Source: Confluentibacter lentus | Lineage (GTDB): Bacteria > Bacteroidota > Bacteroidia > Flavobacteriales > Flavobacteriaceae | Reading direction: 5' to 3' | Assembly: GCF_002806995.1 (NCBI RefSeq) | Contig: NZ_NIHE01000002.1 | Coordinates: forward strand, 526,778-590,777 | DNA: 64,000 nucleotides | Shown here: positions 8,334 to 26,430 of the stretch, piece by piece | Position numbering within the stretch: position 1 is the first letter of the stretch | Layout: every line of letters begins with the position of its first letter | The notes under the pieces: model-generated | The model's input: the letters and a program-made list of their open reading frames with translations, nothing else | Told to the model about the DNA's origin: nothing | Databases searched by the model: none | Program-made: the position numbers and the translations under genes

Positions 8334-9302
8334 TTACAAGGCTTTATGGGCTTCTTTTCTATTGTAAATCGGTAAATAGATTAATGATAATCCGCCAAAA
8401 ATAATAATCATAAGTGTTTGTGCAAACCACATGATCCAACCAAAAGCAATACTAGGTTCTTCGGGGATATTAAAAATGGATAAAGCGGCATAAATGGCCA
8501 CAGGATAAGATCCTATCCCGCTGTTGGTAGCGGCAATACTAAAACTGCCAGCAATAAAACCAACCAAAACGGCGCCTAAGGGCAAATCCCCTAAATCTTT
8601 AAAAGCAAGAGACGTGACATAAAACATGAGCACATACATAGTCCATATAAACAGTGTATGAAAAATAAAGGCCCATTTTTTTTTCATTTTGAAAATACTA
8701 AACACCCCTTCAATTAAACCTTTAGCAAAAGTTCTTATTTTTAATGCCATTTTTGAGCTACTATTCTTTAAATATTTAAAAAGTAAGACTCCTAAAAAAA
8801 TGAACAAAACAAAGGCAATCACAATCTTTAAGGGATTGAATTTTTCAATTAGCAAACTGTATAAAAAATCAAATTCAATGAAGAGCGTTATAAATATAAT
8901 AGCAAACATCATAATTAAATCGGCTATTCTCTCAGACACAATAGTCCCAAATCCTTTTTCAAAAGGCACATCCTCGTAATTTGTTATGATGGTAGCCCTT
9001 GCAATTTCCCCAGCTCTTGGTATGGTATAATTAATTAAATATGCCGAAAAAATGGCCATCACGCTGTTATTAAACTTCATTTTATACCCTAAAGGCTCTA
9101 GCATAAACAACCAGCGATATGCTCTGGATAAATGGCTAAGAAACCCAAAAAACATACCCAATACAATCCACCTATAATCTGCTTCTTTAAAAAAAACAAT
9201 TAATTTATCAAAAGAAACTTTGTGTAATGAATACCAAACTAAAAAAACAGCCAAAAGTAATGGGAGAATGATTTTTAGTGCTTTAGATATTTTCGGATTC
9301 AA
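8334..9302 (-). CDS. flippase-like / lysylphosphatidylglycerol-synthase-TM-like (UPF0104) membrane protein
   Basis: 322 aa. Multi-pass hydrophobic profile. The N-terminus resembles YbhN/UPF0104-family proteins. Confidence 0.5.
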   Translation of the reverse strand: MNPKISKALKIILPLLLAVFLVWYSLHKVSFDKLIVFFKEADYRWIVLGMFFGFLSHLSRAYRWLFMLEPLGYKMKFNNSVMAIFSAYLINYTIPRAGEIARATIITNYEDVPFEKGFGTIVSERIADLIMMFAIIFITLFIEFDFLYSLLIEKFNPLKIVIAFVLFIFLGVLLFKYLKNSSSKMALKIRTFAKGLIEGVFSIFKMKKKWAFIFHTLFIWTMYVLMFYVTSLAFKDLGDLPLGAVLVGFIAGSFSIAATNSGIGSYPVAIYAALSIFNIPEEPSIAFGWIMWFAQTLMIIIFGGLSLIYLPIYNRKEAHKAL

Positions 9303-9306
9303 AAGT

Positions 9307-9657
9307 CTATTTTAGCAAGTTTGTGGCTTCGTCTGGAAAGACTAAAGAAGGTTTGAATACTTTTGCTTCTTCTATATCCATAAGAGCATATGTAATTAAA
9401 ATAAGGGTGTCTCCTACGGACACTTTTCTGGCGGCAGCGCCATTTAGTGTAATTTCCCCCGTATTTCTCGGTCCGGGAATTACATAGGTTTCTAATCGTT
9501 CACCATTATCGTTATTAACAACTTGAACTTTTTCGCCTTGTATGATGTTTGCTGCGTCCATTAAGTCTTCATCAATAGTAATACTACCAATGTAGTTAAG
9601 CTCAGCGCCAGTACATTTTACCCTGTGAATTTTAGATTTTACTACTTGAATTTGCAT
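9307..9657 (-). CDS. panD: aspartate 1-decarboxylase
   Basis: 116 aa. [36 protein letters not shown]... aligns with PanD throughout, including the G-S processing site region. Confidence 0.93.
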
Positions 9658-21703: not shown

Positions 21704-21982
21704 ATGTATTTAGAAATTGTATCGCCTGAAGCAACCTTATTTAATGGAGAAGTAACAAGTGTGACTGTTCCGGGAGTTAATGGGGATTTTCAAATGTTAA
21801 ATAACCACGCTGCCATTGTTTCTTTGTTAAGAGAAGGGGTTGTGAAGATTTCAGGAAATAAAGAATTAGCTGAAAATGTTAAAGATAAATTCAGTAAAGG
21901 CGACAACAACACGCTTTTGCTTAAAATTAATTCTGGAACGCTAGAAATGAAAGATAACAAAATAATCATTTTAGCTGATTAG
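21704..21982 (+). CDS. atpC: F0F1 ATP synthase subunit epsilon
   Basis: 92 aa. MYLEIVSPEATLFNGEVTSVTVPGVNGDFQMLNNHAAIVS is epsilon-like. It follows atpD. Confidence 0.85.
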   Translation: MYLEIVSPEATLFNGEVTSVTVPGVNGDFQMLNNHAAIVSLLREGVVKISGNKELAENVKDKFSKGDNNTLLLKINSGTLEMKDNKIIILAD

Positions 21983-22004: not shown

Positions 22005-22043
22005 AACAAAAAACGCGAAACATATATGTTTCGCGTTTTTTTA
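22005..22043. terminator. bidirectional terminator aaaACGCGAAACAtataTGTTTCGCGttttttt
   Basis: 9-bp stem, 4-nt loop, A-run upstream and T-run downstream. It lies between convergent atpC and the 22069 gene. Confidence 0.75.
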
Positions 22044-22068
22044 TTCATTAATATACTATAGATGTGAC

Positions 22069-23271
22069 TCATAATTTGTATTTAGTAATGTCAACCATAG
22101 AACCTTTTTCAATTTGAGGTTGAGCCAATAAATATTTATTTTCCCTATTATGAATTACAACATGCCAATACATTCTATCTTCATTTTCTGTTGTCCAAAA
22201 ATTTTGCACTAATGGTTCAAACTCTTTGTAAGGAATCAAGAATAATTTATCGGGAGAACCGCAACCAAAAGCAACCCATGCGTTCTCTAATGTTCTTAAA
22301 AAATCATTTTGATAAGGATGAAATGCAAACCAAAACTTTTCGTATTGCCCTTGTTTGTGATGTTTTGAAATTGCACAAATAAGTCCCGTAGTTTTATCTT
22401 TGTTAGTATAAGATATTCTTGTTTGCTTAATAAAGTTGATGTTTAGCTTAGCTGTAATTCTTATTAAACATTCTTCGTGAAAGTTTACCTGAATTGTTCT
22501 ATCATCAGATGATTTTCGCTTTTTCTTTTCTACTAGTAGTTCTTCTATTTCGTCAATATCTTCATCTGTTCTTTCTGCAAGCTGAAGGTCTTTTGATGTC
22601 AAGAATATTAATTCTATTAATTTATCAATCCTTGTATATTCTCTAGGTTTTAAAAGCTCATTGATTTGTTGAATAGTTTTTGTATCATTCAAAGTTTCTT
22701 TTAAGCTCAAAAGTTTAAGTAAAGAATCCGTACTCAATAAACGAATATCCCAAGCATGCTGAGAGCCTCTAATTTGAGCTTCAAGGTCACCAGTATCCTG
22801 TCTTCCTACTACAATTAAAATTGATGATTGTGTTTTGCTTATTCGATTTTGTTCAATAAGTTTTCTTCTATATTCGGCAATGGTGTCAAGATTAATTCTA
22901 TAAGCGTCTGTTGTTTTAACTTCAAGAACCAAACTATGCCCTTCGGTTGAAGACCAAATACCGTCAAACCCAATATCATTTTGCCTACCTCTATAAAGTC
23001 CGTGTTCTATATTAAATCCAAGTCGTATTCCTATCTGATTAATGATGTCTTGCAATGCAAGTCCACTATCAGAAAACCCATCTGTCAAACAGTTGTCTGC
23101 GAATTGTTTTAAAAGTGATGAAGGAACATGGTCAAGAAGGTCTCGAAATTCTTTTGATGTTATATTATTGTCTTTAAGTTTTCCGTCACCTGCAAATGCA
23201 AGAATTTGTGAAAGTGATTTTGAGTCGAACGTTCCTTTACTTTTTGCCCAAATCTCTGTAATACTATTCAT
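22069..23271 (-). CDS. solitary Mrr-like PD-(D/E)xK restriction-endonuclease-domain protein with an unassigned C-terminal domain
   Basis: 400 aa. Residues ~85-125 read LGFNIEHGLYRGRQNDIGFDGIW...SLVLEVKTTD, the Mrr_cat signature G-x-x-D-x-G-x-D-G ... E-x-K. An acidic/basic linker follows (EDIDEIEELLVEKKKRKSSDD), then a ~170-aa C-terminal domain that I cannot assign. No partner genes are nearby. Confidence 0.6.
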   Translation of the reverse strand: MNSITEIWAKSKGTFDSKSLSQILAFAGDGKLKDNNITSKEFRDLLDHVPSSLLKQFADNCLTDGFSDSGLALQDIINQIGIRLGFNIEHGLYRGRQNDIGFDGIWSSTEGHSLVLEVKTTDAYRINLDTIAEYRRKLIEQNRISKTQSSILIVVGRQDTGDLEAQIRGSQHAWDIRLLSTDSLLKLLSLKETLNDTKTIQQINELLKPREYTRIDKLIELIFLTSKDLQLAERTDEDIDEIEELLVEKKKRKSSDDRTIQVNFHEECLIRITAKLNINFIKQTRISYTNKDKTTGLICAISKHHKQGQYEKFWFAFHPYQNDFLRTLENAWVAFGCGSPDKLFLIPYKEFEPLVQNFWTTENEDRMYWHVVIHNRENKYLLAQPQIEKGSMVDITKYKL

Positions 23272-23315
23272 TTTGTATTGTCGGTTTTATATTCTTGTTG
23301 GTTATAATTAAGCCT

Positions 23316-24635
23316 TCAACCCCCCACTTTATGCCCAGAAAACGCGTAATATAAAATAATGAGGTAGCACGGTAAAAGAATCCAATACCCAAAAGAAGTG
23401 GCTTCAGCAATGGCGGAAGCTTCGCCCATACCTGTTAAAATCAATTCTTCCTTTTTAACATCAACCAACATACCATATAACGGTGGAATAACAGCGCCTC
23501 CGGAGATCGCCATAATAAGCAACGCAGAAGCCGTTTTGGTAAATTTTCCTAAGCCTTGTAAAGCCAAGGGCCAAATGGCGGGCCATACCAAAGCATTGGC
23601 GATTCCTAAAGCTGCAACAAATAATACGGATACAAAACCATCTGTAAAAAGAATAAAAAAAGAAAACACAATTCCCAAAACAGCGCTGGCTTTTAAAGCA
23701 AATGCTTGATTGATATATTTTGGAATTAAAAAAACACCCAAGGCATACGTTACTACCATCGCCATTAATGTAAACAGCGTGAAAAACTTAGCTTGCTCAA
23801 CAGGAATATCCAAAGCAATACCGTAAGCTATAATGGTATCGCCAGCAATCACTTCAACACCTACGTATAAAAACAATGCCAATACCCCTAACCATAAATG
23901 AGGAAATTGAAAAATACTGGTTTTCACCGTGTCGCCTACTTTTGGTTCTTCAATAAGCGATTCTTCTACATTTGGTAATGGTGCTTTTCTTATTAAAATT
24001 CCTAAGATAAATAACACCATTGCCATAACAATATACGGTGTCACCACACTATCTGCCATGGTATCTAATAAACGCCCCTTTTCCTCAGCATCAACAACCT
24101 CAAATTGTGCTTTTATTTTATCAATGCCCGATAACAATAAAGCTCCAAAAATAACAGAGCCTAACGCACCTGCTACTTTATTGGCGATACCCATTATGGC
24201 AATACGCTTTGCAGCACTTTCTATGGGTCCTAAAATGGTAATATAGGGGTTTGATGCTGTTTGTAATAGGGTCATCCCAGCGCCTTGAACAAAAATACCA
24301 GTTAAGAACATCCAATAGGTTCTGGCTTCGGCTGCTGGTATAAAAATTAAAGCCCCTACAGCCATAATAATTAAGCCTAAGGACATACTTTTTTTGAACC
24401 CTATTCTTTTGATGACATAAGACGCAGGAAGTGCCATAAAGACAAATGAAATATAAGAGGCCGATGCCACTAAATACGATTGCGCATCTGTTAACTCATT
24501 AATGGTTTTCATAAATGGAATTAATGCGCCATTAATCCAGGTTACAAATCCGAAGATGAAAAATAATCCCGCAATAACAATAATGGGAATAAGTGTGTTG
24601 TTCTTTTGCGGAAGTGCTTGATTTGTTTCTGACAT
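23316..24635 (-). CDS. sugar MFS transporter (FucP/glucose-galactose transporter family)
   Basis: 439 aa, 12-TM profile. N-terminal region ...FGFVTWINGALIPFMK... is typical of the FucP family. Confidence 0.8.
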   Translation of the reverse strand: MSETNQALPQKNNTLIPIIVIAGLFFIFGFVTWINGALIPFMKTINELTDAQSYLVASASYISFVFMALPASYVIKRIGFKKSMSLGLIIMAVGALIFIPAAEARTYWMFLTGIFVQGAGMTLLQTASNPYITILGPIESAAKRIAIMGIANKVAGALGSVIFGALLLSGIDKIKAQFEVVDAEEKGRLLDTMADSVVTPYIVMAMVLFILGILIRKAPLPNVEESLIEEPKVGDTVKTSIFQFPHLWLGVLALFLYVGVEVIAGDTIIAYGIALDIPVEQAKFFTLFTLMAMVVTYALGVFLIPKYINQAFALKASAVLGIVFSFFILFTDGFVSVLFVAALGIANALVWPAIWPLALQGLGKFTKTASALLIMAISGGAVIPPLYGMLVDVKKEELILTGMGEASAIAEATSFGYWILLPCYLIILYYAFSGHKVGG

Positions 24636-24650
24636 ATATTAAAGGTTGAT

Positions 24651-25091
24651 TTACACTTTTTTAATCACGTTGGTAACAATGCCCCAAATAATAAAATCAT
24701 TGTCTTTAGTGATTTTTATAATGGGATAATTAGGATTTTCAGGCTGTAACCAAACCTCATCTTTATCAACTTTTAAGCGTTTTACGGTGAATTCTCCATC
24801 TAAAAAACAAACAGCAATTTTGTTGTTTTCGGGTTCCAGACTCCTATCAATAACCAACAAATCGTTATCATCGAGTCCAGCACCAATCATGGATTGTCCG
24901 CTTACACGCGCAAAAAAAGTAGCTTCTTTGTTTTTAATAAGTTCTTTATCCAAAGACAAGCGTTGTTCTTTAAAATCTTCGGCTGGCGATGGAAATCCTG
25001 CAGAAATTCCAGTATCAAAAAACAAAGCTCCTAGATTATTGGTGTCATCTGGAGTGAAAAATGTTAACGGTTGAGCGTTGTGTGATATCAT
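24651..25091 (-). CDS. umuD: S24 peptidase, UmuD-like translesion polymerase accessory subunit
   Basis: 146 aa. FFARVSGQSMIGAGLDDNDLLVIDRS...FTVKRLK carries the Ser/Lys dyad motifs of UmuD/LexA C-terminal domains. No HTH. Confidence 0.8.
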   Translation of the reverse strand: MISHNAQPLTFFTPDDTNNLGALFFDTGISAGFPSPAEDFKEQRLSLDKELIKNKEATFFARVSGQSMIGAGLDDNDLLVIDRSLEPENNKIAVCFLDGEFTVKRLKVDKDEVWLQPENPNYPIIKITKDNDFIIWGIVTNVIKKV

Positions 25092-25173: not shown

Positions 25174-26430
25174 CTATTTCACTTTAATAATGTCATTAAT
25201 ATTCGTTGTATATCTGGGTGATAAGCGTTCTTGGCGCATTTTCCAAGTGCGTTTTAAATCTTGATTCCCAAGCTTTACTTTATAATCTGCATACTTTTTA
25301 TTCAACCCATCAATAGCATGCATCAATGGTTTATGCTTCGGGTTTTCGCTTTCAAATAAATCTATTTGATGATTATATGTAGGCACTAAACCCGTAACGA
25401 TAACACCTGCCCGTTTATACTTAATGCCTTCTTTAAAAATGGTTGTGACAGCATGAACGGCTTGTTGACTGATAATCAAACTCGAATCTGTTGGAAAAGG
25501 TAGGCTTATTATTTTACTTGCTCTATGTTGTTCTAAATCTTTTTTATGACGGTCGCTACTTAAGGTCACATAAATAATATGGCAACTGGATTTTTGCCTT
25601 CTGAGTTTTTCGGCACAACTGGTTGCAAATGTGGAAATGCGCTCTTTTATATTATCTATATCGGAAAATGTATATTCAAAACTTCTAGTGGTGGCAATGG
25701 CGTGTTTTGTCTTTATGTCTTCTAATTTAATTTCTGAAATACCTTCCAAATCCTTCTTTAATTTCCATTCGGTGATAGAAAAGGTTTTACGCACCCAATC
25801 ATCTGATAGTTGTGTGAAATCGAATGCCGTCATGCAGTTTTTAGCCTTTAATCGCTTTTGAAGTTGCCGACCAATGCCCCAAACATCTTCAATCTTCATC
25901 CATTTTAAGGCTTTTATTCTTTTTTCTTCGGAATCAATAACGTAAACACCATTAGTTTGATTAGGAAATTTACGTGCAATTTTATTGGCAACCTTGCTCA
26001 ACGCTTTTGTTGGCGCGATGCCCACACAGGTTGGAATACCTGTCCATTTTAAAATGCGTTGCCTAATTTGATTGCCGTAATCATTGAAATCGTAATCCTT
26101 AAACCCTTTAAATTCCAAAAAAGCTTCGTCTATACTATACACCTCAACATCGGGCGTGAATTGTTCTAAAATTTTCATCACACGGCTACTCATATCGCCA
26201 TATAAGGGATAATTTGAAGACAATACCCGGATGTTTTTTTCTTTGCAGAACGCTTCCCATTTAAAAATGGGCGCACCCATAGGAAGCTCTAAAGCTTTGG
26301 CTTCATCACTTCGTGAAATAACACAACCATCATTATTACTTAAAATAGCAATGGGTTTGTGGCGTAAATTAGGGTTAAAAACGCGTTCGCAAGACGCATA
26401 AAAATTGTTACAATCTACTAGGGCGTACAT
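25174..26430 (-). CDS. umuC: Y-family DNA polymerase, UmuC-like
   Basis: 418 aa. MYALVDCNNFYASCERVFNPNLRHKPIAILSNNDGCVISRSDEAKALE... aligns almost residue for residue with the UmuC N-terminus. Confidence 0.9.
   Translation of the reverse strand: MYALVDCNNFYASCERVFNPNLRHKPIAILSNNDGCVISRSDEAKALELPMGAPIFKWEAFCKEKNIRVLSSNYPLYGDMSSRVMKILEQFTPDVEVYSIDEAFLEFKGFKDYDFNDYGNQIRQRILKWTGIPTCVGIAPTKALSKVANKIARKFPNQTNGVYVIDSEEKRIKALKWMKIEDVWGIGRQLQKRLKAKNCMTAFDFTQLSDDWVRKTFSITEWKLKKDLEGISEIKLEDIKTKHAIATTRSFEYTFSDIDNIKERISTFATSCAEKLRRQKSSCHIIYVTLSSDRHKKDLEQHRASKIISLPFPTDSSLIISQQAVHAVTTIFKEGIKYKRAGVIVTGLVPTYNHQIDLFESENPKHKPLMHAIDGLNKKYADYKVKLGNQDLKRTWKMRQERLSPRYTTNINDIIKVK

Follow-up and report, generated by a model that had tools for sequence, protein, structure and literature searches.

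We examined a 64-kb stretch of DNA from Confluentibacter lentus (contig NZ_NIHE01000002.1, positions 526,778 to 590,777 of the forward strand; the whole stretch is called the window below), in which an original prediction, made by a model from the sequence alone, had singled out a solitary nuclease gene on the minus strand. The open reading frame (ORF) and the sequences quoted for it were confirmed at 22069..23271 (-), with a length of 400 amino acids (aa): LGFNIEHGLYRGRQNDIGFDGIW...SLVLEVKTTD corresponds to residues 84-122, the charged linker EDIDEIEELLVEKKKRKSSDD to residues 234-254, and the C-terminal strings KFWFAFHPYQ...YWHVVIHN are also present. The gene is flanked by atpC (21704-21982, +) and by a sugar permease of the major facilitator superfamily (MFS; 23316-24635, -). 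Since an identical protein is found in the database as 'hypothetical protein [Confluentibacter lentus]', and at least 3412 homologues are detected at E<=1e-3, the ORF is a genuine gene rather than a product of chance; the top 120 homologues are full-length and 65-100% identical. The features of the locus are as follows.

22069..23271, minus strand: complete ORF of 400 aa with an ATG start (stop codon 22069-22071), member of a large unannotated nuclease family
22044..23302, no strand: inserted segment relative to the empty site, made up of the ORF, a 5' leader of ~31 bp and a 3' tail of ~25 bp
22008..22041, no strand: strong bidirectional intrinsic-terminator hairpin, native to the site (the empty site has the hairpin too), 27 bp past the stop of the inserted gene

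A single-gene insertion between the permease and atpC

In the two sister species C. citreus and C. flavum, nothing but a spacer of ~62 bp separates the permease (94-96% identical) from the convergent atpC, and the surrounding gene order is shared (TonB receptor, GDSL lipase, atpD, atpC / permease, S24 peptidase, Y-family polymerase, DUF3157). The boundaries of the insert were taken from the junction alignment with these two species. The insert is ~1.26 kb long, lies just inside the native terminator hairpin between the convergent genes, and has a guanine-plus-cytosine (GC) content of 31.9%, compared to 36.4% for the flanks. The insertion is recent, comprises a single gene and is specific to Confluentibacter lentus. 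The question raised with the original prediction, whether atpC is normally followed directly by the permease, can thus be answered yes for both sister species, and the possibility that the gene is kept at this position in all relatives does not hold, the site being empty in C. citreus and C. flavum.

The prediction had also described the gene as having no methyltransferase, ATPase or immunity gene nearby, and our searches agree: none of the 51 substantial ORFs in the window matched a PADLOC model at E<=1e-5, and local hidden Markov models (HMMs) for C5-cytosine methyltransferases (C5-MTases) and Vsr found neither in the window.

Two further observations concern the site. In Flaviramulus sp. 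BrNp1-15 the gap between the permease and atpC holds a different gene, of the HGSNAT_cat family (locus L092, 6349-7440), from which it follows that the convergent-terminator spot may be a recurrent landing site for accessory genes. On the permease side, the minus-strand segment 23316-26430 of the window holds a Y-family DNA polymerase (IMS/UmuC-like, 25174-26430), an S24 peptidase (UmuD/LexA-like, 24651-25091) and the permease, and these three genes and the inserted nuclease gene run in one direction with gaps of 82, 15 and 44 bp. No intrinsic terminator is predicted between the permease stop and the hairpin at 22041-22008. Given this shared direction and the lack of a terminator, the inserted gene may be expressed by read-through transcription from a damage-inducible cluster.

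An intact nuclease domain joined to a degenerate one

The coding sequence divides into the following segments, all on the minus strand.

23023..23271: N-terminal helical region, residues 1-83, with conserved Q22, G28, L32 and R43
22732..23022: catalytic PD-(D/E)xK core, residues 84-180, the most conserved segment
22915..22965: catalytic motif D103 (22963-22965)...E117 (22921-22923)-V-K119 (22915-22917)
22588..22731: conserved helical extension of the nuclease domain, residues 181-228, with P209, E211 and invariant D216
22486..22587: charged linker, residues 229-262, predicted to be disordered, with a predicted local distance difference test score (pLDDT) of 25-31
22072..22485: second restriction-endonuclease-fold domain, residues 263-400, a putative DNA-recognition or regulatory domain

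By computation, residues ~60-228 are shown as a predicted PD-(D/E)xK nuclease domain in which the whole catalytic set (D103, E117-x-K119, Q74, D75 and N78) is present and nearly invariant. In an alignment of 66 diverse members that are 30-48% identical to the query, D103 and E117 are found in 66/66 and K119 in 65/66, and Q74, N78, G91, D103, W106, E117, G169 and D216 are invariant; mean pairwise identity over the core (84-180) among diverse members is 48%. The AlphaFold2 (AF2) model of the full protein has a pLDDT of 67.8, with 75-81 for the core strands, and its core elements are beta 87-90, 104-107 and 113-119, alpha 128-140, beta 149-157 and beta 173-180. They are preceded by helix 71-83, which carries the invariant Q74 and N78 and the near-invariant D75 and runs into the nuclease core. 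In this model D103 opens the second core strand and E117-x-K119 is in the third, within an alpha-beta-beta-beta-alpha-beta unit that begins with alpha 71-83, so the topology and the placement of these residues indicate the canonical PD-(D/E)xK arrangement. The modelled domain resembles solved PD-(D/E)xK members, its structural neighbours being Hjc, FokI and the nuclease domains of Type IIG/IIL enzymes, along with Type II and IIS enzymes.

The original prediction had called the protein Mrr-like. Its expectation for the nuclease half is borne out as far as the PD-(D/E)xK fold is concerned; membership in the Mrr family fails. Mrr_cat (PF04471) is not among the Pfam matches listed for the query, for the 66 diverse members (E<=1) or for the two domain consensuses, and hhalign against E. 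coli Mrr gave a probability of 0.4-0.6%, and on these grounds we rejected Mrr membership. No match to the Mrr_N winged helix was found in front of the nuclease, where residues 1-83 are helical throughout and run on into the nuclease domain. What is left is a colinearity of motifs judged by eye (alpha-1 '...hLGF/Y', 'G-x-D-G-h', 'h-h-(E/Q)-x-K' and 'h-h-h-T/V-x-G/S...A'), and it is reasonable to suppose that the family and Mrr share the same fold and perhaps the same broad branch of it. The family is like E. coli Mrr in its PD-(D/E)xK fold, in its motif order by eye and in being solitary without a cognate methylase, while Mrr consists of Mrr_N and Mrr_cat in the opposite domain order and the family has a second restriction-endonuclease-fold domain instead. 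The inverted order that had been pointed out is therefore real relative to Mrr, but other modification-dependent enzymes also begin with the nuclease, so that the order is nothing out of the ordinary for them.

The disordered stretch between the domains is ~35 aa long (residues 226-262), and the linker residues have a mean pairwise identity of 10.6%. Behind it is a C-terminal domain that had been described as ~170 aa long and as fitting no family; it is ~138 aa long (263-400) and can be assigned to a second restriction-endonuclease fold whose catalytic acidic residues have been lost, rather than to the SRA, EVE, PUA or winged-helix reader that had been proposed for it. The model of this domain has a pLDDT of 95.9 and a predicted template modelling score (pTM) of 0.89, and it resembles solved members of the PD-(D/E)xK fold: its top structural match is the PD-(D/E)xK homing endonuclease I-Ssp6803I, the BisI-family structures NhoI and Eco15I_Ntd are among its best fold matches, and tRNA-splicing endonucleases are among its fold neighbours. 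For the full-length model, I-Bth0305I is among the structural matches. We found no conserved acidic catalytic residue in the C-terminal domain, since between residues 263 and 393 no position keeps D/E in >=60% of members; the sole position above this cut-off is D394 near the C-terminus, which is D/E in 71%. The conserved residues are instead S302, K/R303, Y305, Y313, W314, C337, P347, T361, Y368, W369 and H370, together with basic residues at 271, 282 and 285. Computation thus shows residues 263-400, as modelled, to be a degenerate restriction-endonuclease-fold domain without its acidic catalytic residues. Its mean pairwise identity is 25%, compared to 48% for the catalytic core, so it diverges ~2x faster.

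When the consensus sequences of both domains were searched against Pfam, the only family matches were sub-threshold ones to REase-ARP (E 0.0099) and RecU (E 0.0042, with the C-domain consensus), which are consistent with the assigned fold; no paper on 'REase-ARP' was found in the literature search. An internal duplication as the origin of the two domains was undetectable, hhalign of the N-terminal against the C-terminal domain giving a probability of 0.3% and no detectable sequence similarity.

Family spread and gene neighbourhoods

An exhaustive profile search over 1.84 billion cluster representatives (clusters at 50% identity) found 1613 clusters at E<=1e-3 and 435 at E<=1e-30, and, apparent fragments excepted, the family clusters are ~400 aa long and matched in both domains. 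In a pattern-seeded scan of one genome per species, which gives a lower bound, the family is present in at least 330 of 185,579 species genomes (~0.2%) from more than 10 phyla. Its hosts include Bacteroidota, Acidobacteriota, Cyanobacteria, Bacillota, Chloroflexota, Nitrospirota, Desulfobacterota, Verrucomicrobiota, Deinococcota, Gemmatimonadota, Spirochaetota and Pseudomonadota. Single-sequence and profile searches found no significant match to the protein or its profiles in Pfam, NCBIfam, PADLOC, PHROGs or PDB sequences, and the query itself had no match in Pfam at E<=10.

Among 72,556 plasmid and 50,697 phage records the family is all but missing, with one weak partial match in plasmids and none in phages, and we rejected plasmid or phage carriage on this basis. 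None of the 87 family loci tested shares the neighbours found in the window, and the flanks are unrelated even between copies at 81-85% nucleotide identity. The 143 immediate neighbours of the gene at 80 non-redundant loci fall into 128 Pfam families, mainly housekeeping. The GC content of the gene is below that of its flanks in 70/73 loci, by 9.9 points on average and by as many as 20. These unrelated contexts, the low GC and the absence from plasmids and phages indicate a self-sufficient chromosomal gene that is horizontally transferred, and computation shows that it travels as a single-gene unit.

Two of the sequences collected need a separate comment. The contig of locus L016 is titled as a metagenome-assembled genome (MAG) of Bosea thiooxidans, and its family gene is 80% identical to the Flavobacteriaceae copy; because its flanks have 34% GC, it is probably a mis-binned Bacteroidota sequence, and we did not count it as a transfer between phyla. 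On a Halalkalicoccus megaplasmid (NZ_CP144462.1; L089, 4941-5270), a 109-aa archaeal 'hypothetical protein' matches the nuclease core only (residues 72-151, 36.5% identity), and it is either a fragment or a minimal stand-alone catalytic domain.

In the closest relatives there are signs of how the gene might be carried. Inverted repeats of 15-17 bp bracket the gene in L008 (512-526/1797-1811), L010 (6938-6953/8206-8222) and L002 (~9235-9330), and the repeats GTTAGSNGCWRCCTT / AAGGYWGCNSCTAAC around the gene resemble integron core and inverse-core sites. In all three loci ...TAAC is found ~30 nt past the stop and a GTTRRRY-like site 100-130 nt beyond it, and upstream the homology between the loci ends at G|TT, in G|TTAGCT-type sites. 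This suggests that in the closest relatives the gene is carried as a single-gene cassette, either integron-type or flanked by terminal inverted repeats (TIRs). Against this, the attC-like ends of the three loci form a DNA hairpin no more stable than shuffled sequence (z -0.1 to -0.8), an automated attC finder returned nothing, neither an integrase nor a cassette array was identified at these loci, the copy in the window does not have such ends, and a family-wide test for terminal inverted repeats gave a result equal to the null. In a Verrucomicrobiia MAG (L063), the family gene also sits between the arms of a perfect 15-bp inverted repeat, AATAGCCCAGGGCAA / TTGCCCTGGGCTATT, one arm 120 nt upstream and the other 68 nt downstream, and the sequence of this repeat is unrelated to that of the L008 and L010 repeats.

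We counted methylase and Vsr genes within 7 kb of the family gene at 81 non-redundant loci: a C5-MTase is present in 13/81, Vsr in 12/81, and either of them in 15/81, leaving 66/81 loci with neither. Vsr is also the commonest family in Pfam and PADLOC scans of the 143 immediate neighbours. It immediately precedes the family gene, in the same orientation and at a distance of 20-134 bp, in L015, L028, L042, L075 and L076; in L080 it is found downstream, at 162 bp and again in the same orientation. There are two recurrent types of cassette, one of which consists of the methyltransferase, a GHKL ATPase, a ~430-aa protein, Vsr and the family gene (L042, L075 and L080). Cassettes with the first four of these genes are located at 1830-6981 in L042, 1981-6980 in L075, 8338-13137 in L080, 8228-13787 in L018 and 8205-14047 in L019. 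The cassette ATPase, 705-923 aa long, has an N-terminal MORC/MutL-type HATPase_c_3 domain and a C-terminal histidine-kinase-type HATPase_c domain; its N-terminus resembles that of the BbrUII/HgiDII restriction enzymes, and the Alistipes version carries an EcoRII-N DNA-binding domain as a fusion. The ~430-aa protein (376 aa in L075 and L080) has no significant match in Pfam or NCBIfam, the 376-aa proteins giving only a weak sub-cutoff match to response regulators. The combination of C5-MTase, ATPase, ~430-aa protein and Vsr appears to be an uncharacterised system of restriction-modification (R-M) type, and it looks like a two-component-style restriction system. The cassette in L015 carries its own NgoFVII-type endonuclease. 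Other neighbours of the family gene are toxin-antitoxin pairs, integrases, Nmad2, a phosphorothioate-DNA-dependent restriction endonuclease together with MzaB (L034), and ZacB/ZacC (L052).

Possible function of the family

The interpretation given in the original prediction is partly supported, the nuclease fold and the solitary state having held up and the Mrr family and the unplaceable C-terminal domain having not. Our own preferred reading is a tentative one: the gene may encode a self-contained mobile restriction-type endonuclease that is Type IV-like, that is, modification-dependent. The N-terminal domain would catalyse Mg2+-dependent phosphodiester cleavage, and the C-terminal domain would serve as a DNA-recognition module or as an allosteric effector. 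With one canonical active site per monomer, the enzyme would have to dimerise on DNA to cut both strands and would otherwise make nicks. The nuclease has no obligatory cognate methylase, given that the window holds none and that 66/81 loci have neither a C5-MTase nor Vsr nearby, and the adjacent cognate methyltransferase expected of a Type II R-M system is likewise lacking in the window, a C5-MTase being found at 13/81 loci. As the majority of copies are without a methylase partner, normal host DNA must be left uncut, and the most economical way of achieving this would be to limit cleavage to DNA with a foreign modification, as Type IV enzymes do. MspJI is a precedent for a modification-dependent mode with a facultative association with a 5-methylcytosine (5mC, also written m5C) methylase and vsr, and NhoI and Eco15I are precedents for a restriction-endonuclease-fold domain that reads 5mC directly.

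Comparison with these and other known systems shows which parts of the architecture have parallels. MspJI has an N-terminal reader with an SRA-like fold and a C-terminal nuclease. Like the family, MspJI-family enzymes are single chains (~400-460 aa) with a PD-(D/E)xK nuclease and a separate second domain, and some members are found in C5-MTase/vsr cassettes that look like R-M systems while others are solitary in horizontally acquired regions. MspJI itself adjoins a C5-MTase and vsr; of its homologues, about half have retained a 5mC methylase next to them, the rest being solitary in mobile regions (PMC2938202). In contrast, a methylase neighbour is present in ~16% of our family, and while the MspJI nuclease is recognisably Mrr-like, the family has no Mrr_cat match, has the nuclease first, and has a restriction-endonuclease fold as its second domain. 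DpnI and PvuRts1I/AbaSI are modification-dependent enzymes with an N-terminal nuclease, and the family would be like them in having the nuclease first and a DNA or modification reader second, and in not needing a methylase partner. Sau3AI has an N-terminal catalytic domain of the restriction-endonuclease fold and a C-terminal domain of the same fold without catalytic residues, the latter binding a second DNA site and acting as an allosteric effector; the family resembles it in combining an active N-terminal and an inactive C-terminal domain of this fold in one chain. NhoI and Eco15I_Ntd recognise 5mC within duplex DNA and flip no base in doing so (PMC11347163). Unlike the family, whose C-terminal domain has no catalytic acidic residues, BisI-family enzymes read and cut with one domain, and the 3-6% identity indicates similarity at the level of the fold only.

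Several results weigh against the modification-dependent reading. PADLOC and DefenseFinder-type models are blind to the protein, the query matching 0 families of PADLOC-DB v2 at E<=10, and housekeeping genes make up the majority of the immediate neighbours. Foldseek against the PDB gave no match at E<1e-3, and the pLDDT of the N-terminal domain is moderate (55-81). The catalytic domain is unusually conserved, with many invariant residues outside the catalytic triad, which hints that its activity or its interactions are more constrained than simple restriction would require. The C-terminal domain has no Pfam match to the known modification-reader folds (SRA, EVE/PUA, winged helix, DUF3427 and McrB-N), and that it binds DNA is an assumption. 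Finally, with 66/81 loci having neither methylase nor Vsr, the link to m5C could be a by-product of clustering in defence islands.

Other explanations have to be considered against the same data. The protein could be an abortive-infection or toxic effector, in which a poorly specific DNase in the N-terminal domain is held by the C-terminal domain, as an auto-inhibitor or pseudo-partner, until a phage-derived trigger releases it to degrade cell or phage DNA. We regard this as unlikely, although a single gene with no immunity or methylase partner at 66/81 loci, the patchy, AT-rich and horizontally transferred distribution typical of defence genes, the recurrence of toxin-antitoxin modules (DUF433/PIN and MNT-type) and other defence genes alongside, and an active domain tethered by a flexible linker to an inactive look-alike, which suits intramolecular regulation, all fit it; no sensor domain (ATPase, TPR, CARF/SAVED etc.) is recognisable, the most specific recurrent neighbours are Vsr and C5-MTase rather than genes of abortive-infection type, and there is no PADLOC match to a known abortive-infection nuclease. 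The neighbours also raise the idea of a conventional m5C R-M system, Type II-like or multi-component and protected by its methylase, to which the family protein would contribute the nuclease subunit; the solitary copies would then be orphans whose methylase is unlinked, or inactive remnants. The 13/81 loci with a C5-MTase within 7 kb argue for this, as do the cassettes of L042, L075 and L080, where the family protein is the sole assignable nuclease besides Vsr, and the presence of Type II, IIS and IIG nuclease domains among its structural neighbours. But a C5-MTase is absent within 7 kb at 68/81 loci, the window has no methylase and no PADLOC-recognised gene, the L015 cassette already has an NgoFVII-type endonuclease, the solitary copy in the window is intact with all invariant residues, which is unexpected of a remnant, and a Type II enzyme without protection would be lethal, making this improbable.

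We give similarly little credence to a role outside defence, as a structure-specific nuclease of repair or recombination, either resolvase-like or mismatch-related and possibly working with Vsr. The protein's likeness to Hjc and RecU does not go beyond the generic fold (8-13% identity). These Holliday-junction resolvases, archaeal and bacterial respectively, are small single-domain homodimers encoded by vertically inherited core genes, whereas the family has two domains, a patchy distribution and horizontal transfer. A gene found in ~0.2% of species, missing from the same site in two sister species, AT-richer than its host nearly everywhere and placed in unrelated contexts has traits unlike those of a repair gene. 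The gene could also owe its mobility to homing, as a selfish, free-standing endonuclease gene that cuts empty sites and so spreads: the insert barely exceeds the ORF and is in an intergenic spot between convergent genes, homing endonucleases are matched by the C-terminal domain (I-Ssp6803I, its top match) and by the full-length model (I-Bth0305I), and a fast-evolving C-terminal domain could retarget the enzyme. However, copies with 81-85% nucleotide identity are in wholly different flanks and no conserved target is evident, and the gene is not found in introns, inteins, phages or plasmids, so we consider homing very improbable.

Returning to the modification-dependent reading, a more specific and more doubtful proposal is that the family is a new class of stand-alone restriction enzyme, in which a degenerate restriction-endonuclease-fold domain would read specificity or modification for an unrelated intact PD-(D/E)xK nuclease in the same chain. 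To our knowledge, no characterised Type IV family has this architecture of degenerate reader and intact nuclease. In a bolder variant, the C-terminal domain could have a metal-independent active site, making the protein a dual nuclease, because K303, Y305, Y313, Y368 and H370 recall the Tyr-His-Lys chemistry of tRNA-splicing endonucleases. Much of this has been seen before, namely the fold and the stand-alone restriction-type class, the pairing of an active with an inactive domain of the same fold, and the nuclease-first order. What is new is a large family that every library we tested fails to recognise, and the joining of an intact PD-(D/E)xK domain to a sequence-unrelated degenerate restriction-endonuclease-fold domain in a methylase-independent single-gene module.

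If the modification-dependent reading fails, the family would be one more group of uncharacterised PD-(D/E)xK nucleases. If it is correct, at least 1600 clusters (50% identity) from more than 10 bacterial phyla would join the single-gene restriction and defence enzymes, and an inactivated restriction-endonuclease fold may prove to be reused for recognition or regulation. MspJI and BisI have been used as tools for mapping DNA modifications. AbaSI has been used for the same purpose (PMC4081097). As modification-dependent endonucleases serve as mapping tools, a new type of reader could bring new specificities. The C. lentus locus is also a clean and datable case of a single gene inserted into a housekeeping locus.

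One other neighbourhood should be mentioned here. On a Pyrinomonadaceae chromosome (L001/L021, 7252-7947), the family gene is immediately preceded, in the same orientation, by a gene for Nmad2 ('nucleotide modification associated domain 2', PF18753); three small ORFs and a gene with DUF8412 come next, and the Nmad2 neighbour is a further hint of a link to DNA-modification biology.

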